64,000 nt of DNA. Origin: Dehalococcoidia bacterium (GTDB taxonomy: Bacteria > Chloroflexota > Dehalococcoidia > UBA2979). The position numbers and the translations under genes are program-made. A model generated the notes under the pieces. The model searched no databases, was not told where the DNA came from, and saw only the letters and a program-made list of their open reading frames with translations. Shown here one piece after another: positions 30,607 to 45,484 of this stretch (positions within the stretch are counted from its first letter, which is position 1; the number at the start of each line of letters is the position of its first letter). Where the stretch lies: assembly GCA_965262725.1 (NCBI GenBank), contig OZ253555.1, positions 3,264,001 through 3,328,000 of the forward strand, in the 5' to 3' direction.

Positions 30607-32251
30607 CCCTGATCCACCGAAGAAGAGTGCGCGAGCGGCTGGGGTTGGGTGCTCCGCTGTAGCTGGGACAATGGTTTTTGACCGAATCACGTCACAGCCA
30701 CAGGGAGCACCCATTCGATGTTAGCAACGAGCAGCCCCGACCGGATACACATCGCCTTCGACGACGACCGCCTCGTGGACCACGCGGGCCTGCTGCTCCC
30801 GGCCACGCTCGCTGGCCGGCTCGGCCTCCGTGAACTGGCAGACGCCCACCTCGACCTCGGTGACGCAGCGGGGCGGGCGAACGTCGGCGACAAGCTGATG
30901 ACTCTCATCGCCTCGGCGCTCGCGGGCGGCGACTGCATCGATGACGCCGATGCCATGCGCTCAGGCGGCGCCGGGCGCGTGCTCGGCTGCACGGTGAAGG
31001 CGCCGTCCACCCTCGGGACGTTCCTGCGCAGCTTCCGCTGGGGCCACGTCCGCCAGCTCGACCGCATCAGCCGCGAGTTGCTGGCCCGCAGTTGGGCGGC
31101 CGGGGCGGGACCCGGCGCGGCGCCGTTCACGATCGACCTCGACTCGACGCTCTGCGAGACCTACGGACTGGCGAAAGAGGGCGCCCGGCACCACGGCTAC
31201 ACGGGCGTGCGCGGCTATCACCCGCTGCTCGCGGTGGCGGCCGGGACGGGTGAGGTGCTGATGGCCCGGCTGCGCGGGGGCCGTGCCAACACCGCTCGGG
31301 GGGCCGCCCACTTCCTGCGTGAGACGGTGGGCCGGGTGCGCGACGCCGGGGCGAGCGGGCAGCTCACGGTGCGCGCCGACAGCGGCTTCTACAACCACGC
31401 TGTCGTCGCCGTCTGTCGCAAGCAGGATGTCCGCTTCTCCATCACCATTCGCCAGCAGCCGAACGTACGCCGGCTGATCGAGGCGATACCGGAAGAGGAC
31501 TGGACGCCGATCCCGTACTGGCAGGACGACGGCGCCGCTGTCGCCGAGACGACCTACACGCCGTTCCAGCACACGAGGGACGCCACCGCGGTGCGGCTCA
31601 TCGTGCGGCGCGTCAAGCCGACGCCCGGCTCACAGCTCGCGCTCTTCGTGAACTACAGTTACCACGCCTTCATCACCGATCGCGCGGGGGAGATGATGGA
31701 GCTGGAGGCCGACCATCGCCGTCACGCCGAGATCGAGAACGCGATCCGCGACCTCAAGTACGGCGTCGGGTTGAACCATCTCCCCTCGGGCCGCTTCGCC
31801 GCGAACGCGGCGTGGCTCGCGGTGCAGGTGATCGCGCACAACCTCGCCCGCTGGACGGCACGCCTCGGGCTCGGCGAGGGGATCGTGACGACCAGGACGC
31901 TCAGGCGGCGCTACTTCTCTCTCGCCGGACGGCTCACCCACTCTGCCCGGCGGTGGACCCTGCACCTCCCGAAGCGCTGGCCCTGGGCCGGGCAGCTGGC
32001 AGCCGCGCTCGCGCGACTACGGGCGATACCGCTCCCGACCTGACGCCCGCTCACAGCGCCGAACCGGAGCCGAAGCTCGCGCCAGCATGCCCGCGCACGC
32101 CTCGCGCACCCTCAGCGCCCCCGAGCGGCGCTGAGCGACGACTCCTGGCTCCGGCCCGCCCCCGGCGCCGCCCGGCGAACGCCGACACACCCGTCGAACT
32201 CTCCGGCAGCCCGGCACCCCGCCTCGTCAAGCTTCGTTCGGTGGATTCGAG
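30607..32251 (+). mobile_element. IS1380-family insertion sequence, intact copy 1
   Basis: Ends CCCTGATCCACCGAA and TTCGGTGGATTCGAG (imperfect IR). 5-bp TSD TGTAT at 30602-30606 and 32252-32256. Confidence 0.93.
30718..32043 (+). CDS. IS1380-family DDE transposase
   Basis: IDLDST, GYHPL, RADSGF, HAEIEN.I.DLK and PSGRF.ANAAW motifs. Confidence 0.93.
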   Translation: MLATSSPDRIHIAFDDDRLVDHAGLLLPATLAGRLGLRELADAHLDLGDAAGRANVGDKLMTLIASALAGGDCIDDADAMRSGGAGRVLGCTVKAPSTLGTFLRSFRWGHVRQLDRISRELLARSWAAGAGPGAAPFTIDLDSTLCETYGLAKEGARHHGYTGVRGYHPLLAVAAGTGEVLMARLRGGRANTARGAAHFLRETVGRVRDAGASGQLTVRADSGFYNHAVVAVCRKQDVRFSITIRQQPNVRRLIEAIPEEDWTPIPYWQDDGAAVAETTYTPFQHTRDATAVRLIVRRVKPTPGSQLALFVNYSYHAFITDRAGEMMELEADHRRHAEIENAIRDLKYGVGLNHLPSGRFAANAAWLAVQVIAHNLARWTARLGLGEGIVTTRTLRRRYFSLAGRLTHSARRWTLHLPKRWPWAGQLAAALARLRAIPLPT

Positions 32252-37054: not shown

Positions 37055-38683
37055 ATGATCCGCCCAGAGGCCGCCGACTACCAGGGCCACCGCGTGGTGG
37101 GGGCGCGGCTGGCGGAGCCGGTGCTCGACGATGAGATCGGCTTCCACTCCTCCGAGCGCGAGCGCCTGCTGCTTCCCCACTATCACGCGCTCGACCGCGC
37201 GCAGCTCGTCATGCTGGTCGAGCGCGGGCTCGTCACGCGTACTGACGGAGTGAGCATGGCGGCGGGGCTCCGCCGCTTCGTCGAGCCCGGGATCGAGGCG
37301 GGCTACATCTCAGTAGGCGCGGGAATGCACTCTGGCGAGGTCGCCCTCATCGCAGAGCTCGGCGAGGAGGTGGGCGGGCGCCTCGAGATCGGCCGCGCCT
37401 CCGGCGAAGTCGTGCAGGTGGCGTGGCGCCGGATGGAGGCCGCGGCGCTGCGCTCGCTGCTCCATACGCTCGCGGAGGCGCGCGCAGCAATCCTCGAGGT
37501 GGCGGCGGCGCACACCTCGAGCGTGATGCCTGGCTACACGCACAGCCAGCACGCACAGGTCGTGACGCTCGCGCACGTGCTGCTGGCGTGGGAGGCGGGG
37601 CTCGCCCGCTGCTTCGCACGGGGCGCGGAGACGCACGCCCGCGTCAACTGGAGCGCGGCCGGGAGCGGGAACATGAGCGGCAGCGACGCCCCGCTCGATC
37701 GGGCGCGCACGGCCGAGCTGCTCGGATTCGACGGACCGCTCGACAGTACGTACGACGCGATCCAGCACAACGATCACGCGATCGAGTGCCTCGGCCTGCT
37801 CGCCACGCTCGGATCTCTCGTCACGCGCTGGGCGCAGGACCTCTATCTCTACGGCTCGCAGGAGGTCGGTGTCCTTGAGCTACCCGACCGCTTCTGCGGG
37901 ACGAGCGCCCTCATGCCGCAGAAGAAGAACCCCCGCCTGCTGGAGTACCTGCAGGGCGCGTCGGCCTCGGCGCTCGGCGGCCTGGCCACGGCGCTGATGG
38001 TGGAGAAGACACCCTCGGGCGGCGCGATCGTCGAGCGCACCCTCTTCGTCGAGGCGCTCGCTCGGGGCTTTCGCGAGGCGGAACGCAATCTCGGATGGCT
38101 CGCCCTGGCCGTCTCGGAGTCGCAGTGGGACCTGGAGCGGATGCGCTCGCTCGCGCGCACGCACGGGGCGACGTCGAGCACGCTCGCCGCCGCGCTCGCC
38201 CGCGAACGCGGGTGGGCGTGGCGGACCGCGCACGAGGTCGTCGGCACCGCCGTGCGCATCGCGAGCGAGCGCGGCGTCGCGGCCGGCGACCTCACCCCCG
38301 CCCTCCTCGACGAGGCGTCGGAGCTCTACTGCGGGCAGCCGGCGGGGCTGAGCGCCGAGAGCGTCGCGAGCGCCCTCGATCCGCTGGAGGCGGTGAGGCG
38401 CCACGCCCTGCTCGGAGGACCGGCGCCGGAGGAGAGCATCCGGCTGCTCCCGGAGCGCCGCGCCGCGCTGGCCCGCGACCGGGAACGCCTCTCTCAGCTC
38501 ACCGCTCACGCGGAGTCGGCCGCACGGACGCTCGAGGCCACCTTCGATCGGGTCGCGCGGGGGGAGCCGTCCGGCCGCGCGAAGGGGCGCGCGCGCGCCA
38601 CGGGAGTCGCACACCCGGTACCCGCCGGGGCGTCGGACAAGAGCGCCGACGGCCGGCCAACGCCGCGCCCCGACCCCCCTTAA
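37055..38683 (+). CDS. argininosuccinate lyase-like protein (fumarase/ASL superfamily), divergent
   Basis: MPGYTH.QHAQ and signature variant GTSALMPQKKNP. Stop codon TAA lies in the IS1380 TSD. Confidence 0.8.
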   Translation: MIRPEAADYQGHRVVGARLAEPVLDDEIGFHSSERERLLLPHYHALDRAQLVMLVERGLVTRTDGVSMAAGLRRFVEPGIEAGYISVGAGMHSGEVALIAELGEEVGGRLEIGRASGEVVQVAWRRMEAAALRSLLHTLAEARAAILEVAAAHTSSVMPGYTHSQHAQVVTLAHVLLAWEAGLARCFARGAETHARVNWSAAGSGNMSGSDAPLDRARTAELLGFDGPLDSTYDAIQHNDHAIECLGLLATLGSLVTRWAQDLYLYGSQEVGVLELPDRFCGTSALMPQKKNPRLLEYLQGASASALGGLATALMVEKTPSGGAIVERTLFVEALARGFREAERNLGWLALAVSESQWDLERMRSLARTHGATSSTLAAALARERGWAWRTAHEVVGTAVRIASERGVAAGDLTPALLDEASELYCGQPAGLSAESVASALDPLEAVRRHALLGGPAPEESIRLLPERRAALARDRERLSQLTAHAESAARTLEATFDRVARGEPSGRAKGRARATGVAHPVPAGASDKSADGRPTPRPDPP

Positions 38684-38794
38684 CCCTGATCCACCGAAGA
38701 AGAGTGCGCGAGCGGCTGGGGTTGGGTGCTCCGCTGTAGCTGGGACAATGGTTTTTGACCGAATCACGTCACAGCCACAGGGAGCACCCATTCG

Positions 38795-40120
38795 ATGTTA
38801 GCAACGAGCAGCCCCGACCGGATACACATCGCCTTCGACGACGACCGCCTCGTGGACCACGCGGGCCTGCTGCTCCCGGCCACGCTCGCTGGCCGGCTCG
38901 GCCTCCGTGAACTGGCAGACGCCCACCTCGACCTCGGTGACGCAGCGGGGCGGGCGAACGTCGGCGACAAGCTGATGACTCTCATCGCCTCGGCGCTCGC
39001 GGGCGGCGACTGCATCGATGACGCCGATGCCATGCGCTCAGGCGGCGCCGGGCGCGTGCTCGGCTGCACGGTGAAGGCGCCGTCCACCCTCGGGACGTTC
39101 CTGCGCAGCTTCCGCTGGGGCCACGTCCGCCAGCTCGACCGCGTCAGCCGCGAGTTGCTGGCCCGCAGTTGGGCGGCCGGGGCGGGACCCGGCGCGGCAC
39201 CGTTCACGATCGACCTCGACTCGACGCTCTGCGAGACCTACGGACTGGCGAAAGAGGGCGCCCGGCACCACGGCTACACGGGCGTGCGCGGCTATCACCC
39301 GCTGCTCGCGGTGGCGGCCGGGACGGGTGAGGTGCTGATGGCCCGGCTGCGCGGGGGCCGTGCCAACACCGCTCGGGGGGCCGCCCACTTCCTGCGTGAG
39401 ACGGTGGGCCGGGTGCGCGACGCCGGGGCGAGCGGGCAGCTCACGGTGCGCGCCGACAGCGGCTTCTACAACCACGCTGTCGTCGCCGTCTGTCGCAAGC
39501 AGGATGTCCGCTTCTCCATCACCATTCGGCAGCAGCCGAACGTACGCCGGCTGATCGAGGCGATACCGGAAGAGGACTGGACGCCGATCCCGTACTGGCA
39601 GGACGACGGCGCCGCTGTCGCCGAGACGACCTACACGCCGTTCCAGCACACGAGGGACGCCACCGCGGTGCGGCTCATCGTGCGGCGCGTCAAGCCGACG
39701 CCCGGCTCACAGCTCGCGCTCTTCGTGAACTACAGTTACCACGCCTTCATCACCGATCGCGCGGGGGAGATGATGGAGCTGGAGGCCGACCATCGCCGTC
39801 ACGCCGAGATCGAGAACGCGATCCGCGACCTCAAGTACGGCGTCGGGTTGAACCATCTCCCCTCGGGCCGCTTCGCCGCGAACGCGGCGTGGCTCGCGGT
39901 GCAGGTGATCGCGCACAACCTCGCCCGCTGGACGGCACGCCTCGGGCTCGGCGAGGGGATCGTGACGACCAGGACGCTCAGGCGGCGCTACTTCTCTCTC
40001 GCCGGACGGCTCACCCACTCTGCCCGGCGGTGGACCCTGCACCTCCCGAAGCGCTGGCCCTGGGCCGGGCAGCTGGCAGCCGCGCTCGCGCGACTACGGG
40101 CGATACCGCTCCCGACCTGA
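38795..40120 (+). CDS. IS1380-family DDE transposase (near-identical to copy 1)
   Basis: 441 aa; an I/V difference (LDRIS versus LDRVS) is seen relative to copy 1. Confidence 0.93.
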   Translation: MLATSSPDRIHIAFDDDRLVDHAGLLLPATLAGRLGLRELADAHLDLGDAAGRANVGDKLMTLIASALAGGDCIDDADAMRSGGAGRVLGCTVKAPSTLGTFLRSFRWGHVRQLDRVSRELLARSWAAGAGPGAAPFTIDLDSTLCETYGLAKEGARHHGYTGVRGYHPLLAVAAGTGEVLMARLRGGRANTARGAAHFLRETVGRVRDAGASGQLTVRADSGFYNHAVVAVCRKQDVRFSITIRQQPNVRRLIEAIPEEDWTPIPYWQDDGAAVAETTYTPFQHTRDATAVRLIVRRVKPTPGSQLALFVNYSYHAFITDRAGEMMELEADHRRHAEIENAIRDLKYGVGLNHLPSGRFAANAAWLAVQVIAHNLARWTARLGLGEGIVTTRTLRRRYFSLAGRLTHSARRWTLHLPKRWPWAGQLAAALARLRAIPLPT

Positions 40121-40404
40121 CGCCCGCTCACAGCGCCGAACCGGAGCCGAAGCTCGCGCCAGCATGCCCGCCCACGCCTCGCGCACCCTCGCGCCCGCAC
40201 CCTCAGCGCCCCCGAGCGGTGCTGAGCGACGGCTCCTGGCTCCGGCCCGCCCCCGGCGCCGCCCGGCGAACGCCGACACACCCGTCGAACTCTCCGGCAG
40301 CCCGGCACCCCGCCTCGTCAAGCTTCGTTCGGTTCGCGGTAGGGATGCCGGTTGCCCGGCACCCCCCGCACAGATCCGGACGTGCCCTCTCGGGCATCCG
40401 GCTC

Positions 40405-41733
40405 CTACCTCAAGTGCGTGACGGCAAATCGCTCCGCAGGCCACGGGTGAAGGATGGAGATTCGGGGCCAGTGTCCCTGGCACAGGGCAAGGATGCGCTC
40501 CCACGTGAAACGGTCGCGCTGCGACCGCCGTCGGAGAACGCGCAGCCAGAGCCGCTTCACGAAACGGACAAACCGCGTGAGCGCCGGCGAGCTGGTCGGC
40601 ACCGCGTAGTAGCCAAGCCACCCACGCAGTACCCGCCCCAGCCACTGCCCCGTCGTCACGGGGTTGTCGTGCATGCGCCGCCACAACTCGGCCTTGATGA
40701 CCTTCAGCGTCCGGCGCATCCGCTTCGCAACGGGCTTGCGCCCCAGCCCGAATCTCCCGTCGCGTCGGGTCCGGCAGTAGTGCGTCATGCCGAGAAAGTC
40801 GAACGTTTCCGGTCGGCCCTCCCCGCGCTTCCGCCTGTTCGCCAGCGCGAACCTGCCGAACTCAAGTAGACGGGTCTTCTCCGGGTGCAGCTCCAGCCCG
40901 TAGGCCGCGAACCGCTCCCGGAGTGCCTCCATGAACCGCACCGCATCGCTGCGGTGCTGGAACCCCAGGACGAAGTCATCGGCATACCGCACGATGTACG
41001 CCTCGCCCCGGACCTCCCGCGGTCGCCACTCGCGCGCAAACCAGTCGTCGAGCACGTTGTGCAGGTACACGTTCGCAAGCAGCGGCGATATCGGCGCCCC
41101 CTGCGGCATCCCCCGCACGAAATCGACTTCCGGCTCCGCGTCCATGACGCCGACGCTCAGCCACTTTCGTATCAGGCGCAACACCCGCTGGTCCCCGATG
41201 CGCATCTCCAGAAACGACATCAGCCGCCCCCGGTCGATGCTGCCGAAGAACTCCCGGATGTCCACCTCGACAATCCAGCTGACCTTGCGCCGTTCGACCG
41301 CGTAGGCCAGTGCGTCCAGCGCGTCATGCGCCGAACGCCCCGGCCTGAAGCCATGCGAGAAGCCGTAGTAGCCCGACTCGTAAATCGGGTTCAAAAGATT
41401 GTCCACCACCGCCCGCTGAACGATCTTGTCCTCCAGCGAGACGATACCGAGCGGCCGTATTCCCCCGTCCGGCTTGGGTATCTCTACCCGCCTGACGGGC
41501 TTCGCCCGGTACGCTCCACGGTGTACGCGGCCATGCAGGTCGAGCAATCGCTCGTCCAGCCCGTCCCCGTATTCTCGCCACCTCACCCCGTCCACGCCCG
41601 GAGCCGCATCCCGCTTCAACGCGAGATACGCCTCCCGCAGCGCCTCCGGCGTGATGTGGTGCAAGAGCGCGGTGAGTTTCTCTCCCGGCTTCCGTTCCAC
41701 GAACTGCCGTATCCTCTCCGCTCCGGGTGACAC
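40405..41733 (-). CDS. ltrA: group II intron reverse transcriptase/maturase, no endonuclease domain
   Basis: APGVDG, IPKPDGG.RPLGI, GFRPGRSAHDA, PQGA.ISPLLAN.YLH, RYADD and FDFLG motifs. Confidence 0.95.
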   Translation of the reverse strand: MSPGAERIRQFVERKPGEKLTALLHHITPEALREAYLALKRDAAPGVDGVRWREYGDGLDERLLDLHGRVHRGAYRAKPVRRVEIPKPDGGIRPLGIVSLEDKIVQRAVVDNLLNPIYESGYYGFSHGFRPGRSAHDALDALAYAVERRKVSWIVEVDIREFFGSIDRGRLMSFLEMRIGDQRVLRLIRKWLSVGVMDAEPEVDFVRGMPQGAPISPLLANVYLHNVLDDWFAREWRPREVRGEAYIVRYADDFVLGFQHRSDAVRFMEALRERFAAYGLELHPEKTRLLEFGRFALANRRKRGEGRPETFDFLGMTHYCRTRRDGRFGLGRKPVAKRMRRTLKVIKAELWRRMHDNPVTTGQWLGRVLRGWLGYYAVPTSSPALTRFVRFVKRLWLRVLRRRSQRDRFTWERILALCQGHWPRISILHPWPAERFAVTHLR

Positions 41734-41844
41734 CGCACCCCGACTCTGCGTCCGGACCGTGCCGGTGCTTTGAGGATTCCTCTCGGTTGGGGCCCTTTGC
41801 TCCAGCGACTCCGCCGGGGCTCGCGCCCCCTTCTATGAGGGTCG

Positions 41845-42178
41845 TCTGATCCGCAAGGCCGACGTGGCGGCCTTCTGCACCGTTCTACCGATCGCGCCTC
41901 CCGTCCGCAGCCCTGTGGTGGTTGTCGGTGCCGATGCGAGTGGTGCCGCCGTCTTGTCCCCGGGACGTTGTGGTGACCGTGCTTCTATTCGCACTCGTCG
42001 AGGGGCCGCTCCGGGCCCGGTGCATGATGATCAGCCTGTCTCCAGGGTGTGGGCGCTGCCATCTTGTTCCCGTCCTCGTTGGGACCAGGGGGTTCCGCAG
42101 TCGCCCGCGTGTCGGCATCTCTCGTATCCTCCGAAGCCCACCGGCCGCCCGGTCGCCTCGCTCCTCGCGTGCTGTCTG
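41845..42178 (-). ncRNA. candidate bridge/seekRNA region of the IS1111-type element
   Basis: Carries CCCCCT-hairpin-GAACAAG matching the target site and TCATC-hairpin-ATAGAAG matching the circle junction. Exact RNA ends unknown. Confidence 0.7.
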
Positions 42179-43270
42179 CTACGCCGCCTCGGCCGCGCGC
42201 GCGTGGCGCAACGGCTCGTAGACCTCCCCGCTCTTCCAGAGCGCAAGCATCAGCACCGCCAGTCGCCTCGCGACCGCGACGACGGCACGCTTCTTCGCAT
42301 TGCCGGCCCCCGACTCCGCGTAACGCAGCCCCCACCTGCGGAGGTCGCTGTCGGGGCCGAAGGGGCCCAGGATGTAGTGCGCGGCCTGGTTCAGCACCCG
42401 GCGCAGCGCCACGTCCCCTTCCTTCGTGATCCGCAGCTGGGGCTGCCGATCACCGGAATCGCGGCTCCGGGGCACCAGCCCCAGGTAGGGCCCCACCTCC
42501 CTGTTCTTGGGGAAGCGGGCCGGGTCCTCGATGGTGAGGATGAAGGTGAGCGAGGTGATCGGGCCGACGCCCACGATCTGCCGCAGCGCGCCGGTCTCCG
42601 CGTAGCGCTCGCACATCGCGGCGAGCTTCTTGTCGGCCTGGCGGATCTCCCCGGTCAGCTGCTCGATCTGGTGGAGCACCGGCAGCAGCGCCGGGCCCAG
42701 CTCCTCGGGGATGTGCTCTCTGACCGCGCGGTGGAAGGCCGGCGCCGTGCAGCCCGGAAGCGCCGCGCCCCACGCCTTCACCGCGCCCCGGACGTGGTTG
42801 ATGAACATCGTGCGCGCCCGGACCAGCGCCTCGCGGCTGCGGAGCACCTGGAGGTCCGCCTGCGCCATGGCGCTTCGGTGCCGGATGGGGAAGAGGAGCG
42901 CCGGGTCGAATCGGCCGAGCCGTGCGAGGTGCTCGGCATCGGAGCGGTCGGTCTTGCGCTGGCTGCGCGCGATCAGCCTGACCTGCCTCGGGTTGGCGAC
43001 GATCACGTCGTGACCGAGCTCCGCGAACATCCGGCTCAGCCACGGGGAACGCGGCCCCACCTCCATCACCACCCGGGCGCCCTGCAGTGGGGTGAGCGCC
43101 CGCGTGAGCGCCGCGGTCGTGGTGCGGACTCGCTCCTCCCGCACGATCTCCCCGTCGCCACCGAGGACGCAGAGGTGGCTGTAGCGGTCGCTGACGTCGA
43201 TGCCGACAGTCACGAGCTCCGCATCCCCCACCTTCCTGCTCTCTGTGACATCTGATGTACGCTGTGCCAC
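42179..43270 (-). CDS. IS110-family DEDD recombinase/transposase
   Basis: VGIDVS, VVME, KTDRSDA, GVGPIT, YLGLVP...DSG and KRAVVAVARRL motifs. GTG start with AGGAG RBS (alternative start 43231). Confidence 0.93.
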   Translation of the reverse strand: MAQRTSDVTESRKVGDAELVTVGIDVSDRYSHLCVLGGDGEIVREERVRTTTAALTRALTPLQGARVVMEVGPRSPWLSRMFAELGHDVIVANPRQVRLIARSQRKTDRSDAEHLARLGRFDPALLFPIRHRSAMAQADLQVLRSREALVRARTMFINHVRGAVKAWGAALPGCTAPAFHRAVREHIPEELGPALLPVLHQIEQLTGEIRQADKKLAAMCERYAETGALRQIVGVGPITSLTFILTIEDPARFPKNREVGPYLGLVPRSRDSGDRQPQLRITKEGDVALRRVLNQAAHYILGPFGPDSDLRRWGLRYAESGAGNAKKRAVVAVARRLAVLMLALWKSGEVYEPLRHARAAEAA

Positions 43271-43849
43271 GGTCGGTCTCCTACCTCTCTCGGCTCGCCT
43301 GAGCCGTTCTCCTGGGCCACCACGTGAGCCCGTGCTTGGAGGGGAAGTATCCCCTCTGAGGAGGGGACCGACCCTCATGTCATCTTGTTCGCCGCCTTCA
43401 TCGCTCGTACGGCCCCATCAGACTGCTGCGCATCGTTCATCATCGGCTACGGTTTACGTCCCTTCCCGACGCGGTCCCGGCGTACGACTCGTCGGGACAA
43501 CGCGCAGCTCTCCCAAGTCCCGGCGATAGACGTGTGTGCGTGCATGGGGTCTTCGACACCGTGGGGCCCGACCACGACTCGCCAGTAGCGCCGTCGCCGG
43601 TATTGCCTTCGACCAATCCAAGAGCCTCGGCACCCCAAATGGCCCTTTCGATGCTCATTAGCCCCGCCCGCACACCCCGCTGCCGACGCTTCACAAGCCG
43701 CCTCGCGACGACCCGCGCACGGCTCGCGGAATGACATGAGTGGCTAGCTCTTTGCCATAGAGGACTTCCACCTCCTGCCTACTCGCCAGTTAGCCTGGCG
43801 CTCTGGATTCGAGCTTAAGGGCGGGGACGCCCGATGCTAGACTGCGGTC

Positions 43850-44341
43850 ATGCAACCCCTCGCCGGCATCATCATGGGCTCCTCCTCCGACTGGGAGACG
43901 ATGCGCCTCACCGCCGACGTGCTCGAGGAGCTCGGCGTGCCGCACGAGGTACGCGTGATCTCCGCGCACCGGACGCCGGACCTCCTCTTCGAGTACGCGT
44001 CCACCGCCCGGGAGCGTGGGCTCCAGGTGATCGTGGCCGGCGCCGGGGGCGCGGCGCACCTGCCGGGAATGACCGCCGCCAAGACGGCCCTGCCCGTGAT
44101 CGGCGTGCCGGTCGAGTCGAAGGCGCTGAGCGGACTCGACTCGCTGCTCTCGATCGTCCAGATGCCGGCAGGCGTACCGGTGGCGACGGTGGCGATCGGC
44201 GCGGCCGGGGCCCGCAACGCCGGCCTGCTCGCCGCAGCGATCCTCGCCCCGGGCCGCCCCGCCATCGCCGAGGCGCTCGATAGCTACCGCACGCGTCAGA
44301 CCGACGGCGTCCTCGCGCAGCCGGATCCCCGCCAGGGCTGA
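43850..44341 (+). CDS. purE: N5-CAIR mutase
   Basis: [21 protein letters not shown] and SIVQMP.GVPVATV motifs. Confidence 0.97.
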
Positions 44342-44344
44342 GGC

Positions 44345-45484
44345 GTGCGGATCGGCGTAGTCGGGGCCGGCCAGCTCGGGCGCATGCTCGTGCTGGCCGG
44401 TCGGCCGCTCGGCATCGACTTCCTGATGTACGACCCGGCGCCCGACGCCTCGGGCGGGCGCGTCGCGCCGCTCGTCGTCGGGGACTTCGACGACCGGCGC
44501 GCGCTCGAGCGCTTCGCCTCAGAGGCGGACGTGGTGACCTTCGACTGGGAGAACGTCCCCGCCAACGCCCTGAGAACCCTCCGCGGCCGCGCCGCCGTGC
44601 GGCCGCCGGCGCGTGCGCTCGCGCTCTCGCAGGACAGGCTCGCCGAGAAACGGATCTTCCGGCGGCTCGGCATCGCCACGGCGCCGTTCGCGGCCGTGAA
44701 CTCGCTTCAGGGGCTGCGGCGCGCCGTTGGCCGCGTCGGCCTGCCGGGCGTGCTGAAGACGCGACGGCTCGGCTACGACGGGAAGGGCCAGGCGTGGCTG
44801 AAGCACCCCCGCGACATCGGGACGGCCTACGAGGTCCTGGGCGGGCGGCCGCTCATCTACGAGGCGCGCGTCCCCTTCACGCGCGAGCTCTCGCTGCTCT
44901 CGGTGCGGGGTGCCGACGGCGCGATCGCCCACTACCCGCTCGCCGAGAACCGCCACGAGCGGGGGATCCTCAGGCTCACCACCGCCCCCTACGTCGACCG
45001 CGCGCTGCAGGCGGAGGCGGAGGCGTACCTGGAGTCGCTGCTCCGGCGCCTGCGCTACGTCGGCGTGCTGGGCGTCGAGTTCTTCGAGGCGGAGGGGCGT
45101 CTCGTCGCGAACGAGACGGCCGCGCGCGTGCACAACTCCGGCCACTGGACGATCGAGGGCTCGGTGACGAGCCAGTTCGAGAACCACATCCGGGCCCTCG
45201 CGGGGCTGCCCCTCGGACGCACCGACGCGCGGGGCTACGCAGCGATGGTCAACTTCATCGGCCGCCTCCCCGACGCCGCGGAGGTGCTCGCGGTGCCGGG
45301 TGCCCACTTCCACGACTACGAGAAAACCCCGCGCCCCGGCCGCAAGGTCGGCCACGCCACCCTCGTCTCGCGGAGCGCCCGCGAGCGCGACCGCGCGGCC
45401 AGACGCCTGCTCGAGCTGGGACGGCGCGCGGCCGGTGAGGAGCTGCCCCCCGCCGGGCGCGGCGGGAGGCCCCGGCGTCAGTAG
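44345..45484 (+). CDS. purK: N5-CAIR synthetase
   Basis: GAGQLGRM, GYDGKGQ, HNSGHWT, SQFENH and RKVGH motifs. Confidence 0.96.
   Translation: MRIGVVGAGQLGRMLVLAGRPLGIDFLMYDPAPDASGGRVAPLVVGDFDDRRALERFASEADVVTFDWENVPANALRTLRGRAAVRPPARALALSQDRLAEKRIFRRLGIATAPFAAVNSLQGLRRAVGRVGLPGVLKTRRLGYDGKGQAWLKHPRDIGTAYEVLGGRPLIYEARVPFTRELSLLSVRGADGAIAHYPLAENRHERGILRLTTAPYVDRALQAEAEAYLESLLRRLRYVGVLGVEFFEAEGRLVANETAARVHNSGHWTIEGSVTSQFENHIRALAGLPLGRTDARGYAAMVNFIGRLPDAAEVLAVPGAHFHDYEKTPRPGRKVGHATLVSRSARERDRAARRLLELGRRAAGEELPPAGRGGRPRRQ

Follow-up and report, generated by a model that had tools for sequence, protein, structure and literature searches.

IS4321 and IS5075 reportedly insert in the terminal repeats of Tn21-family transposons. 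Parts of two reports describe group II introns that home to insertion sequences (ISs): RmInt1 homes to ISRm2011-2, and RmInt2 homes to the left and right repeats of ISRm17 in Sinorhizobium meliloti, i.e., at two sites on opposite strands; RmInt2 tolerates reduced pairing between exon- and intron-binding sites 2 (EBS2/IBS2), and intron insertion is thought to block the spread of the IS (PMC4615759, PMC5894124). As outlined in sections of PMC11208160, elements of the IS1111 group carry subterminal repeats of 7–17 bp, a short left end, a long right end, and an RNA downstream of the transposase; their terminal extensions are 7 nt on the left and 3 nt on the right according to sections of PMC11187229. 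The bridge RNA of IS621 and the seekRNAs of ISEc11 and ISXne4 contain a target loop and a donor loop, each with a sense and an antisense guide around a shared core, and guides have been naturally reprogrammed between close relatives (sections of PMC11208160 and PMC11187229). In seekRNAs of the IS1111 type the guide order is reversed, the antisense guide coming first (PMC11187229, same sections). Here, we describe a nest of three mobile elements at positions 38684–43813 of a window of 64,000 nucleotides (the whole stretch analysed, G000:C1:3264001-3328000) from a Dehalococcoidia bacterium, in which an IS1380-family element contains a group II intron and the intron contains an IS1111-group element.

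Genome G000 is a single contig of 3.67 Mb with 70.6% G+C; G003 and G008 were used as comparison genomes, the latter belonging to another genus. The order of nesting was obtained by comparing filled and empty sites within G000, and element boundaries were set by BLAST of five pieces of the nest against the whole genome together with inspection of the junctions. All three elements retain intact protein genes (n = 3). The nest very probably arose by three successive insertions, of the IS1380-family element, the intron, and the IS1111-type element, with both inner insertions guided by RNA, because the insertion sites are constant and guides covary naturally with their targets. The locus would then place two RNA-guided insertion mechanisms, EBS/IBS pairing and an IS110-family bridge RNA, in series on mobile elements.

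Each layer has a precedent, in RmInt2/ISRm17 and, reportedly, in IS4321/IS5075, whereas a group II intron is apparently an unreported class of target. Like IS4321 and IS5075, as these are said to behave, the IS1111-group element has subterminal repeats and occupies one position and orientation within a conserved sequence of another mobile element; unlike them, its target is DNA that encodes a ribozyme domain of a group II intron. With RmInt2/ISRm17, as far as the cited parts describe it, the present intron shares a protein that appears to lack an endonuclease domain, an IS as the natural homing site, and the use of both repeats. It differs in that the IS belongs to the IS1380 family, the host is of another lineage, the intron has a non-canonical GAGCG 5′ end, the left repeat is more often occupied than the right, and an orientation bias is only suggestive. 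The resemblance of the IS1111-group element to IS621, ISEc11, and ISXne4, within the sections cited above, lies in two loops, paired guides, reprogramming between close relatives, and the reversed guide order, all known here in silico; its core is AG and its guides are short. The literature searched gave no description of a group II intron as the target of an IS110-family element, and the word “intron” occurs 0 times in PMC11187229, although the supplementary tables of PMC11208160 and PMC11187229, which give the targets of hundreds of IS110/IS1111 elements, may list one. A ribozyme gene would be an added kind of natural target for bridge recombinases, without a new mechanism.

The family assignments made in the original prediction hold for all three elements. 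The IS1380 transposase matches NF033539 over profile positions 1–419 of 419 (338 bits, cut-off 180), the intron protein matches TIGR04416 over residues 30–403 of 442 (326 bits, cut-off 300), and the DEDD transposase of the inner IS matches NF033542 (216.6 bits, cut-off 140) and has a Transposase_20 C-terminal domain; domain I of the ribozyme is matched by RF02005 at 170 bits. The layers also come apart as had been proposed. Removing 41833–43386 restores a continuous intron: the 1554-bp IS splits it at nt 417/418, and the flanks are 100% identical to intact copies (1500/1500 and 417/417 nt), e.g., G000:C1:3359602-3361518. Removing 40333–43803 gives CTTCGTTCGG|TGGATTCGAG, which is how the right end reads in uninterrupted IS1380 copies, copy 1 at 30607–32241 (Table 1) among them, and the intron splits the right terminal repeat after base 10. 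The two ends of the IS1380-family element agree at 12 of their first 15 positions. For this family, the expected target duplication is 4–5 bp (ISfinder); 5-bp duplications flank all eight copies in which both ends are uninterrupted, and the present unit is bounded by the predicted CTTAA at 38679–38683 and 43814–43818. In contigs of runs X5, X6, and X10, from three other studies, position 38678 is joined to 43814, with 5135 bases skipped and 5 letters shared. The joined sequence, with one CTTAA, is the unoccupied site in the chromosome.

Upstream, the Lyase_1/ASL_C2 gene (37055–38683) has its TAA stop inside the duplicated CTTAA, and purE starts at 43850, 31 nt past the right duplication; the IS1380 composite occupies the 36-nt spacer. 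The earlier statement that no chromosomal gene is touched is accurate for both inner elements, but needs qualification for the outer IS, which sits in this short spacer and includes the upstream stop codon in its duplication. The 5.1-kb insert parts purE from its upstream neighborhood and may be polar on purE-purK.

The intron is 1917 nt long, lies on the minus strand, and has the ends GAGCG...GCGAA by filled/empty comparison, with 1 nt (A) ambiguous. Near-identical copies are present at 14 sites in G000. All 14 of their 5′ junctions read ...ATCCA|GAGCGCC and lie 10 nt inside terminal repeats of IS1380-family elements, facing inward: nine in left-type repeats (CCCTGATCCA), three in right-type repeats (CTCGAATCCA), and two in more distant family members. 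Among main-family repeats, 9 left ones are filled and 8 empty, compared with 3 filled and 15 empty on the right. The motif [AG]ATCCACCG has 108 matches in G000, of which 28 were sorted by eye as IS1380-family ends; the roughly 80 matches outside IS ends are all empty. In four of five intron-containing composites checked, the 5-bp duplications agree across the composite.

Pairing between intron and target provides a further line of evidence. EBS1 lies in the domain I loop UUGGAUU (nt 184–189), whose UGGAUU is complementary to AAUCCA and, with one G-U pair, to GAUCCA; EBS2, AGGGC (nt 158–162), is complementary to GCCCU. Intron lineage B, which is 81% identical in domain I, is inserted antisense in IS1380 near position 100, where the preceding sequence reads ...GCAUC-G-AAUGGG. 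The corresponding two positions of its domain I hold EBS1 CCCAUU and EBS2 GAUGC, which form 6/6 and 5/5 pairs with AAUGGG and GCAUC, respectively. A 95% identical intron in G008 keeps UGGAUU and has the IS1380-type 5′ exon CTTAG-CCCGAATCCA. The 3′ exon of this G008 intron (G008:C1:2447494-2450910), AGAACCGCATG..., resembles the site of lineage A3, and its IS1111 target in domain III is empty; it may be a recombinant, judging from these exons.

The closest solved relatives of the intron protein are group II reverse transcriptases of 420–430 aa (E = 1.9e-45) and of IIC type; the ribozyme nonetheless has an EBS2. Domain profile scans reported no match to an endonuclease domain for the 442-aa protein. 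Since there is no such match and the family profile ends at residue 403 of 442, the intron appears to lack an endonuclease domain. A replication-strand bias is expected for an intron of this kind. Relative to the replication fork, nine copies are co-directional, three are opposite, and two near the terminus are ambiguous (n = 14), with dnaA at 478 kb and the cumulative GC skew at its minimum at 410 kb and its maximum at 2.52 Mb; the bias is suggestive, not significant. As regards the intron ends, the GAGCG start (43799–43803 in the window) is found in the 14-copy lineage and in lineage A2, and a GUGCG start in lineages A3 and B; all end in ...CGCGAA.

In the minimum-free-energy fold of the intron, the site at nt 417/418 is located in the apical internal loop of predicted domain III (nt 387–461), the domain between domain II and the open reading frame (ORF)-bearing domain IV. 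It lies directly 5′ of the GNRA-capped apical hairpin GGGGC-GCGA-GCCCC. This assignment is based on position and on the fold, not on a curated class model. Covariation was considered as support for the fold and discarded: in lineages A2 and A3 all such changes are one-sided, from G-C to G-U, with no compensatory pair.

The empty intron site reads ...CCCCCTT|GTTCGCC..., and comparison of filled and empty sites gives only a shared AAG (CTT on the plus strand of the window), i.e., insertion without a target duplication. The IS boundaries are ambiguous by this AAG; with the rule of a 7-nt left and a 3-nt right extension, AAG is split A|AG and the boundaries become 41832–43385. The hallmarks of the IS1111 group are present, namely the 10-bp subterminal repeat ATGAGGGTCG, a right end of 346 nt, and a left end of at most 155 nt. 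The solved relatives of the DEDD transposase are IS621 and ISCro4 (E about 1e-9 to 1e-10). Since the family profile begins at residue 57 of the 399-aa ORF, translation likely starts at the GTG at 43231, which would give a protein of about 350 aa.

All four full copies of this IS, which are 99.7–100% identical, are inserted at GGCGAACA-AG-GGGGCG of the intron and in the intron's orientation. Three of them reside in intact introns that represent three single-nucleotide polymorphism (SNP) haplotypes over 11 variable sites. For two of these introns, the most similar IS-free copy is distinguished by 1 of the 11 sites; the one at 3507931 has two equally close counterparts, an IS-free copy and the IS-bearing copy at 339648, with 3 differences to each. 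The fourth IS copy is located in a diverged intron derivative with flanks that are about 88% identical. On account of the three haplotypes and the diverged intron, the same-site insertions, or precise excisions, are taken to be independent events.

The 3′ non-coding end of the element is predicted to encode a bridge/seekRNA with guides to both strands of target and donor. Right ends were aligned from four lineages: the window element, a variant of 92–96% identity with another target (G000:1707872-1712034), and relatives of 88% and 81% in G003. The differences fall in four short blocks, and the remaining RNA scaffold is conserved. Block 1 (right-target) is complementary to AG plus the right flank over uninterrupted stretches of 6, 8, 9, and 7 nt in the respective lineages, and block 2 is identical to the 5 nt left of the site, followed by AG, at 5/5, 5/5, 4/5, and 5/5 positions. 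Block 3 ([U/C]CAUC) tracks an A/G difference in the left IS end and block 4 (AAU[A/G]GAAG) one in the right IS end; in both donor guides, A/G and T/C changes accompany those of the IS ends. In the consensus fold, the internal loop that has blocks 1 and 2 on its opposite sides lies between the closing stem GGGCG-CUGC/GCAGCGCCC and the capping hairpin GUCCC...GGGAC, and a second hairpin, GGGCC...GGCCC, is surrounded by blocks 3 and 4; the stems that close the loops are conserved. Both predicted loops have the antisense guide ahead of the sense guide. For the window element, the core is AG and the guides comprise 5+2 nt (left) and 2+4 nt (right): one target guide equals the left half-site plus the core (GAACA-AG), and the other is complementary to the core plus the right half-site (AG-GGGG), a sequence that forms the 5′ strand of the apical hairpin in predicted domain III. 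An Rfam scan of 38000–44500 at E ≤ 1 gave no match to a bridge-RNA family; matches to sR41 and mir-375 scored well under the respective thresholds and were regarded as chance hits.

Collectively, the constant sites, the changed EBS sequences of lineage B, and the guide blocks of four lineages argue for the proposal, made originally from the window alone, that each inner element targets a motif of the element outside it by RNA pairing. The copies of the intron (14/14 junctions) and of the IS1111-type element (4/4) are indeed found at the same two sites and not at unrelated ones.

Several observations count against this interpretation. The intron boundaries depart from the group II consensus (5′ GUGYG, 3′ AY), with a GAGCG start and an AA end, despite which near-identical copies have reached 14 sites, and the RF00029 match to domains V/VI, located where expected at the 3′ end, falls short of the gathering score by 0.1 bit. 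The pairing of EBS2 with the right-repeat site GCUCG is imperfect, with one mismatch and one G-U pair. On the IS side, the register of block 1 shifts by one nt between lineages, and one left-target guide carries a mismatch (4/5). Occupancy is partial, the 11-mer target GAACAAGGGGG being empty in 10 intron copies and in one unrelated place, and gene conversion among copies could blur the haplotype argument. Related IS1111-type elements in G003 and G008 (80–94% identical) are not inside this intron; intron targeting is therefore lineage-specific. Finally, no contig piece among those listed spans the full nest.

The same-site insertions could instead be copies of one composite, spread by segmental duplication, by transposition of a loaded IS1380, or by retrohoming of an IS-loaded intron, and would then not be independent. 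Such copying is consistent with an IS1380::intron B::intron A arrangement common to three loci, with one composite whose duplications do not match (GTAAG vs. CTTAG), and with the near-identity of the IS1111-type copies. However, the intron is found in left and right repeats and in 82%-related and other family members, with different 5-bp duplications, and the IS-bearing introns comprise the haplotypes and the diverged derivative described above; guide covariation, moreover, does not depend on copy history. The varied repeats, duplications, and haplotypes led us to reject composite duplication as the main cause, and we regard this explanation as a whole as improbable. It could also be argued that protein–DNA recognition or DNA structure, such as the GGGGC-GCGA-GCCCC hairpin or the repeat itself, directs the insertions and that the RNA complementarities are incidental. 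Targets of the IS1111 family are reportedly often palindromic repeats, and the right half of the present target is a hairpin arm. In addition, group II intron proteins read distal exon positions, as described in part of PMC4615759. Against this stand the variable blocks within conserved RNA scaffolds: for four lineages of the IS and for intron lineages A and B, these blocks vary together with the flanking sequence. The EBS sequences of lineages A2 and A3 pair only partly with their own sites. A chance match of one 5-mer was calculated at about 1 in 1000, and the RNA-guided mechanism is experimentally established for IS621, ISEc11, and others (sections of PMC11208160 and PMC11187229). Incidental complementarity is accordingly considered very improbable.

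The nest might also be an artefact of assembly, with repeats collapsed or mis-joined in an IS-rich genome. All three elements are multicopy, short-read contigs break in repeats, and the inner junctions recur at other loci, so that reads cannot place them uniquely here. Contigs of a fourth run, X1, cover the outer filled junctions (37600–38713 and 43788–44900) with 0 differences; the listed contig pieces never span the nest. A joint of 41829 to 43384, corresponding to an IS-free intron, was set aside as evidence on this locus, since one of its sides covers only 20–21 letters and other loci are expected to produce it. Nevertheless, G000 is a single 3.67-Mb contig, a matching empty site exists elsewhere, the inner junctions recur in different outer contexts at no fewer than three further loci, and the duplication is intact; misassembly is thus extremely unlikely.

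With three successive insertions as the preferred reading, the following order of events is proposed. An IS1380-family element would have transposed into the spacer between the lyase gene and purE, duplicating CTTAA. The intron would then have retrohomed into the antisense strand of the right repeat, between bases 10 and 11 from the tip, at a site chosen by pairing of EBS1 UGGAUU and EBS2 AGGGC with AAUCCA and GCUCG of the repeat; across G000, the same intron uses both terminal repeats of this IS family. Lastly, the IS1111-group element would have recombined into nt 417/418 of the intron, in the intron's orientation, guided by its own bridge/seekRNA. From general knowledge of transposase end recognition and ribozyme architecture, the nested IS1380 copy, with a split terminal repeat, would no longer be able to transpose, and the nested intron copy, with a split ribozyme, would no longer be able to splice or home. 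If both split hosts are disabled, the three elements would form a chain of parasites on parasites, and their three intact protein genes could act on other copies. The system suits the questions of whether an intron in the repeat silences the IS, whether an IS in domain III silences the intron, and how IS load is affected. Within G000 and its relatives it also supplies natural guide swaps, in that the IS offers four pairs of target and guide and the intron two, plus useful numbers of filled and empty sites.

Table 1. Features of the nested locus and of an uninterrupted IS1380 copy; positions are those of the window.
Feature	Position	Strand	Basis or remark
Left target-site duplication, CTTAA	38679–38683	.	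Empty-site joint 38678->43814 in X5, X6, X10
IS1380-family element, positions 1–1649	38684–40332	+	Comparison with other copies
Left terminal repeat of nested IS1380, CCCTGATCCACCGAA	38684–38698	+	Equals the intron target; unoccupied
IS1380-family DDE transposase gene, 441 aa, intact	38795–40120	+	PF13701, E = 1.5e-58; NF033539, 338 bits
Intron domains V/VI	40332–40406	-	RF00029, 39.9 bits, gathering score 40, E = 2.4e-5
Intron 3′ segment, nt 418–1917: distal half of predicted domain III (41789–41832), domain IV with ORF, domains V and VI	40333–41832	-	100% identity to uninterrupted copies; folds
Intron reverse transcriptase/maturase, 442 aa, intact	40405–41733	-	PF00078; TIGR04416, 326 bits
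IS1111-group (IS110-family) IS, 1554 bp	41833–43386	-	Flank comparison; same strand as intron
Right-end subterminal inverted repeat, CGACCCTCAT in IS sense	41835–41844	-	
Predicted bridge/seekRNA core, within 346-nt 3′ non-coding end	41975–42106	-	Covariation, four lineages; consensus fold
Predicted left-donor guide	41982–41988	-	
Predicted right-donor guide	42026–42030	-	
Predicted left-target guide	42063–42069	-	
Predicted right-target guide	42087–42092	-	
DEDD transposase ORF, 399 aa as listed	42179–43378	-	PF01548, PF02371; NF033542, 216.6 bits
Left-end subterminal inverted repeat, ATGAGGGTCG in IS sense	43369–43378	-	
Intron 5′ segment, nt 1–417: domain I, domain II, proximal half of predicted domain III	43387–43803	-	
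Domain I match	43547–43768	-	RF02005, 170 bits, gathering score 49
EBS1	43615–43620	-	
EBS2	43642–43646	-	
Outer 10 bp of IS1380 right terminal repeat, TGGATTCGAG	43804–43813	+	3471 bp from rest of IS
Right target-site duplication, CTTAA	43814–43818	.	
Uninterrupted IS1380 copy 1, main body (query positions 1–1649)	30607–32241	+	98.8% identical; genome 3294607-3296241
Copy 1 right end, last 10 bp, TGGATTCGAG	32242–32251		TGTAT flanks copy 1; both terminal repeats empty

Nesting is not confined to this locus. A second IS1111-type element of about 2095 bp (G000:C1:1956503-1958597) encodes a 370-aa IS110-family transposase (NF033542, 235 bits) and has other copies at about G000:C1:1952029-1954120, 1921491-1923460, and 2020834-2026850. 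It has the subterminal repeat ATGGATGCCTCG and is inserted antisense at intron nt 287/288 (CCGGGAC|TGGGAG), at the base of domain II, in all four copies; three of the four may represent one event within a duplicated IS1380 composite. Two sequences in its right end are candidate guides: CGGGACC, which would pair with the right flank, and TCCCAGA, which repeats the sequence of the left flank. The right end also contains a partial internal duplication with different guide-like blocks. Reciprocal nesting is seen at G000:C1:1949794-1950190, where the right end of an IS1380 copy interrupts a copy of intron A at nt 387, in predicted domain II. The IS1380 flank ATCAG is unmatched on the other side, and the region has therefore been rearranged. 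Two further copies of intron A (G000:C1:1521800-1526700 and 1875100-1880300) are interrupted in the reverse transcriptase gene by an IS5-family element with a 354-aa transposase (NF033581, 271 bits); the insertions lie about 1036–1060 nt from the intron 3′ end and are no more than about 25 nt apart. An IS21-family element with IstA- and IstB-like ORFs splits the IS1111-type variant that has another target (G000:C1:1707700-1712200). This pattern suggests that these elements target one another as a general rule in this organism.

More tentatively, and with doubt slightly outweighing belief, the genome might be viewed as holding a self-limiting network of RNA-guided parasites of parasites: introns on IS1380 repeats, at least two IS1111-type bridge-RNA elements on the ribozyme sites nt 417/418 and nt 287/288, and IS1380 occasionally landing in the intron. 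If the intron-directed guides of such a network are an evolved specialization, group II introns would represent a natural class of “safe harbor” for bridge recombinases that has gone unrecognized, and each tier could curb the tier below. The GC skew of G000:C1 is flat from about 1.6 to 2.6 Mb, a stretch that holds most of the nested and rearranged elements. The DnaA profile search also matched many identical IstB-like ATPase frames of the IS21 type throughout the genome, and the chromosome is heavily loaded with ISs.

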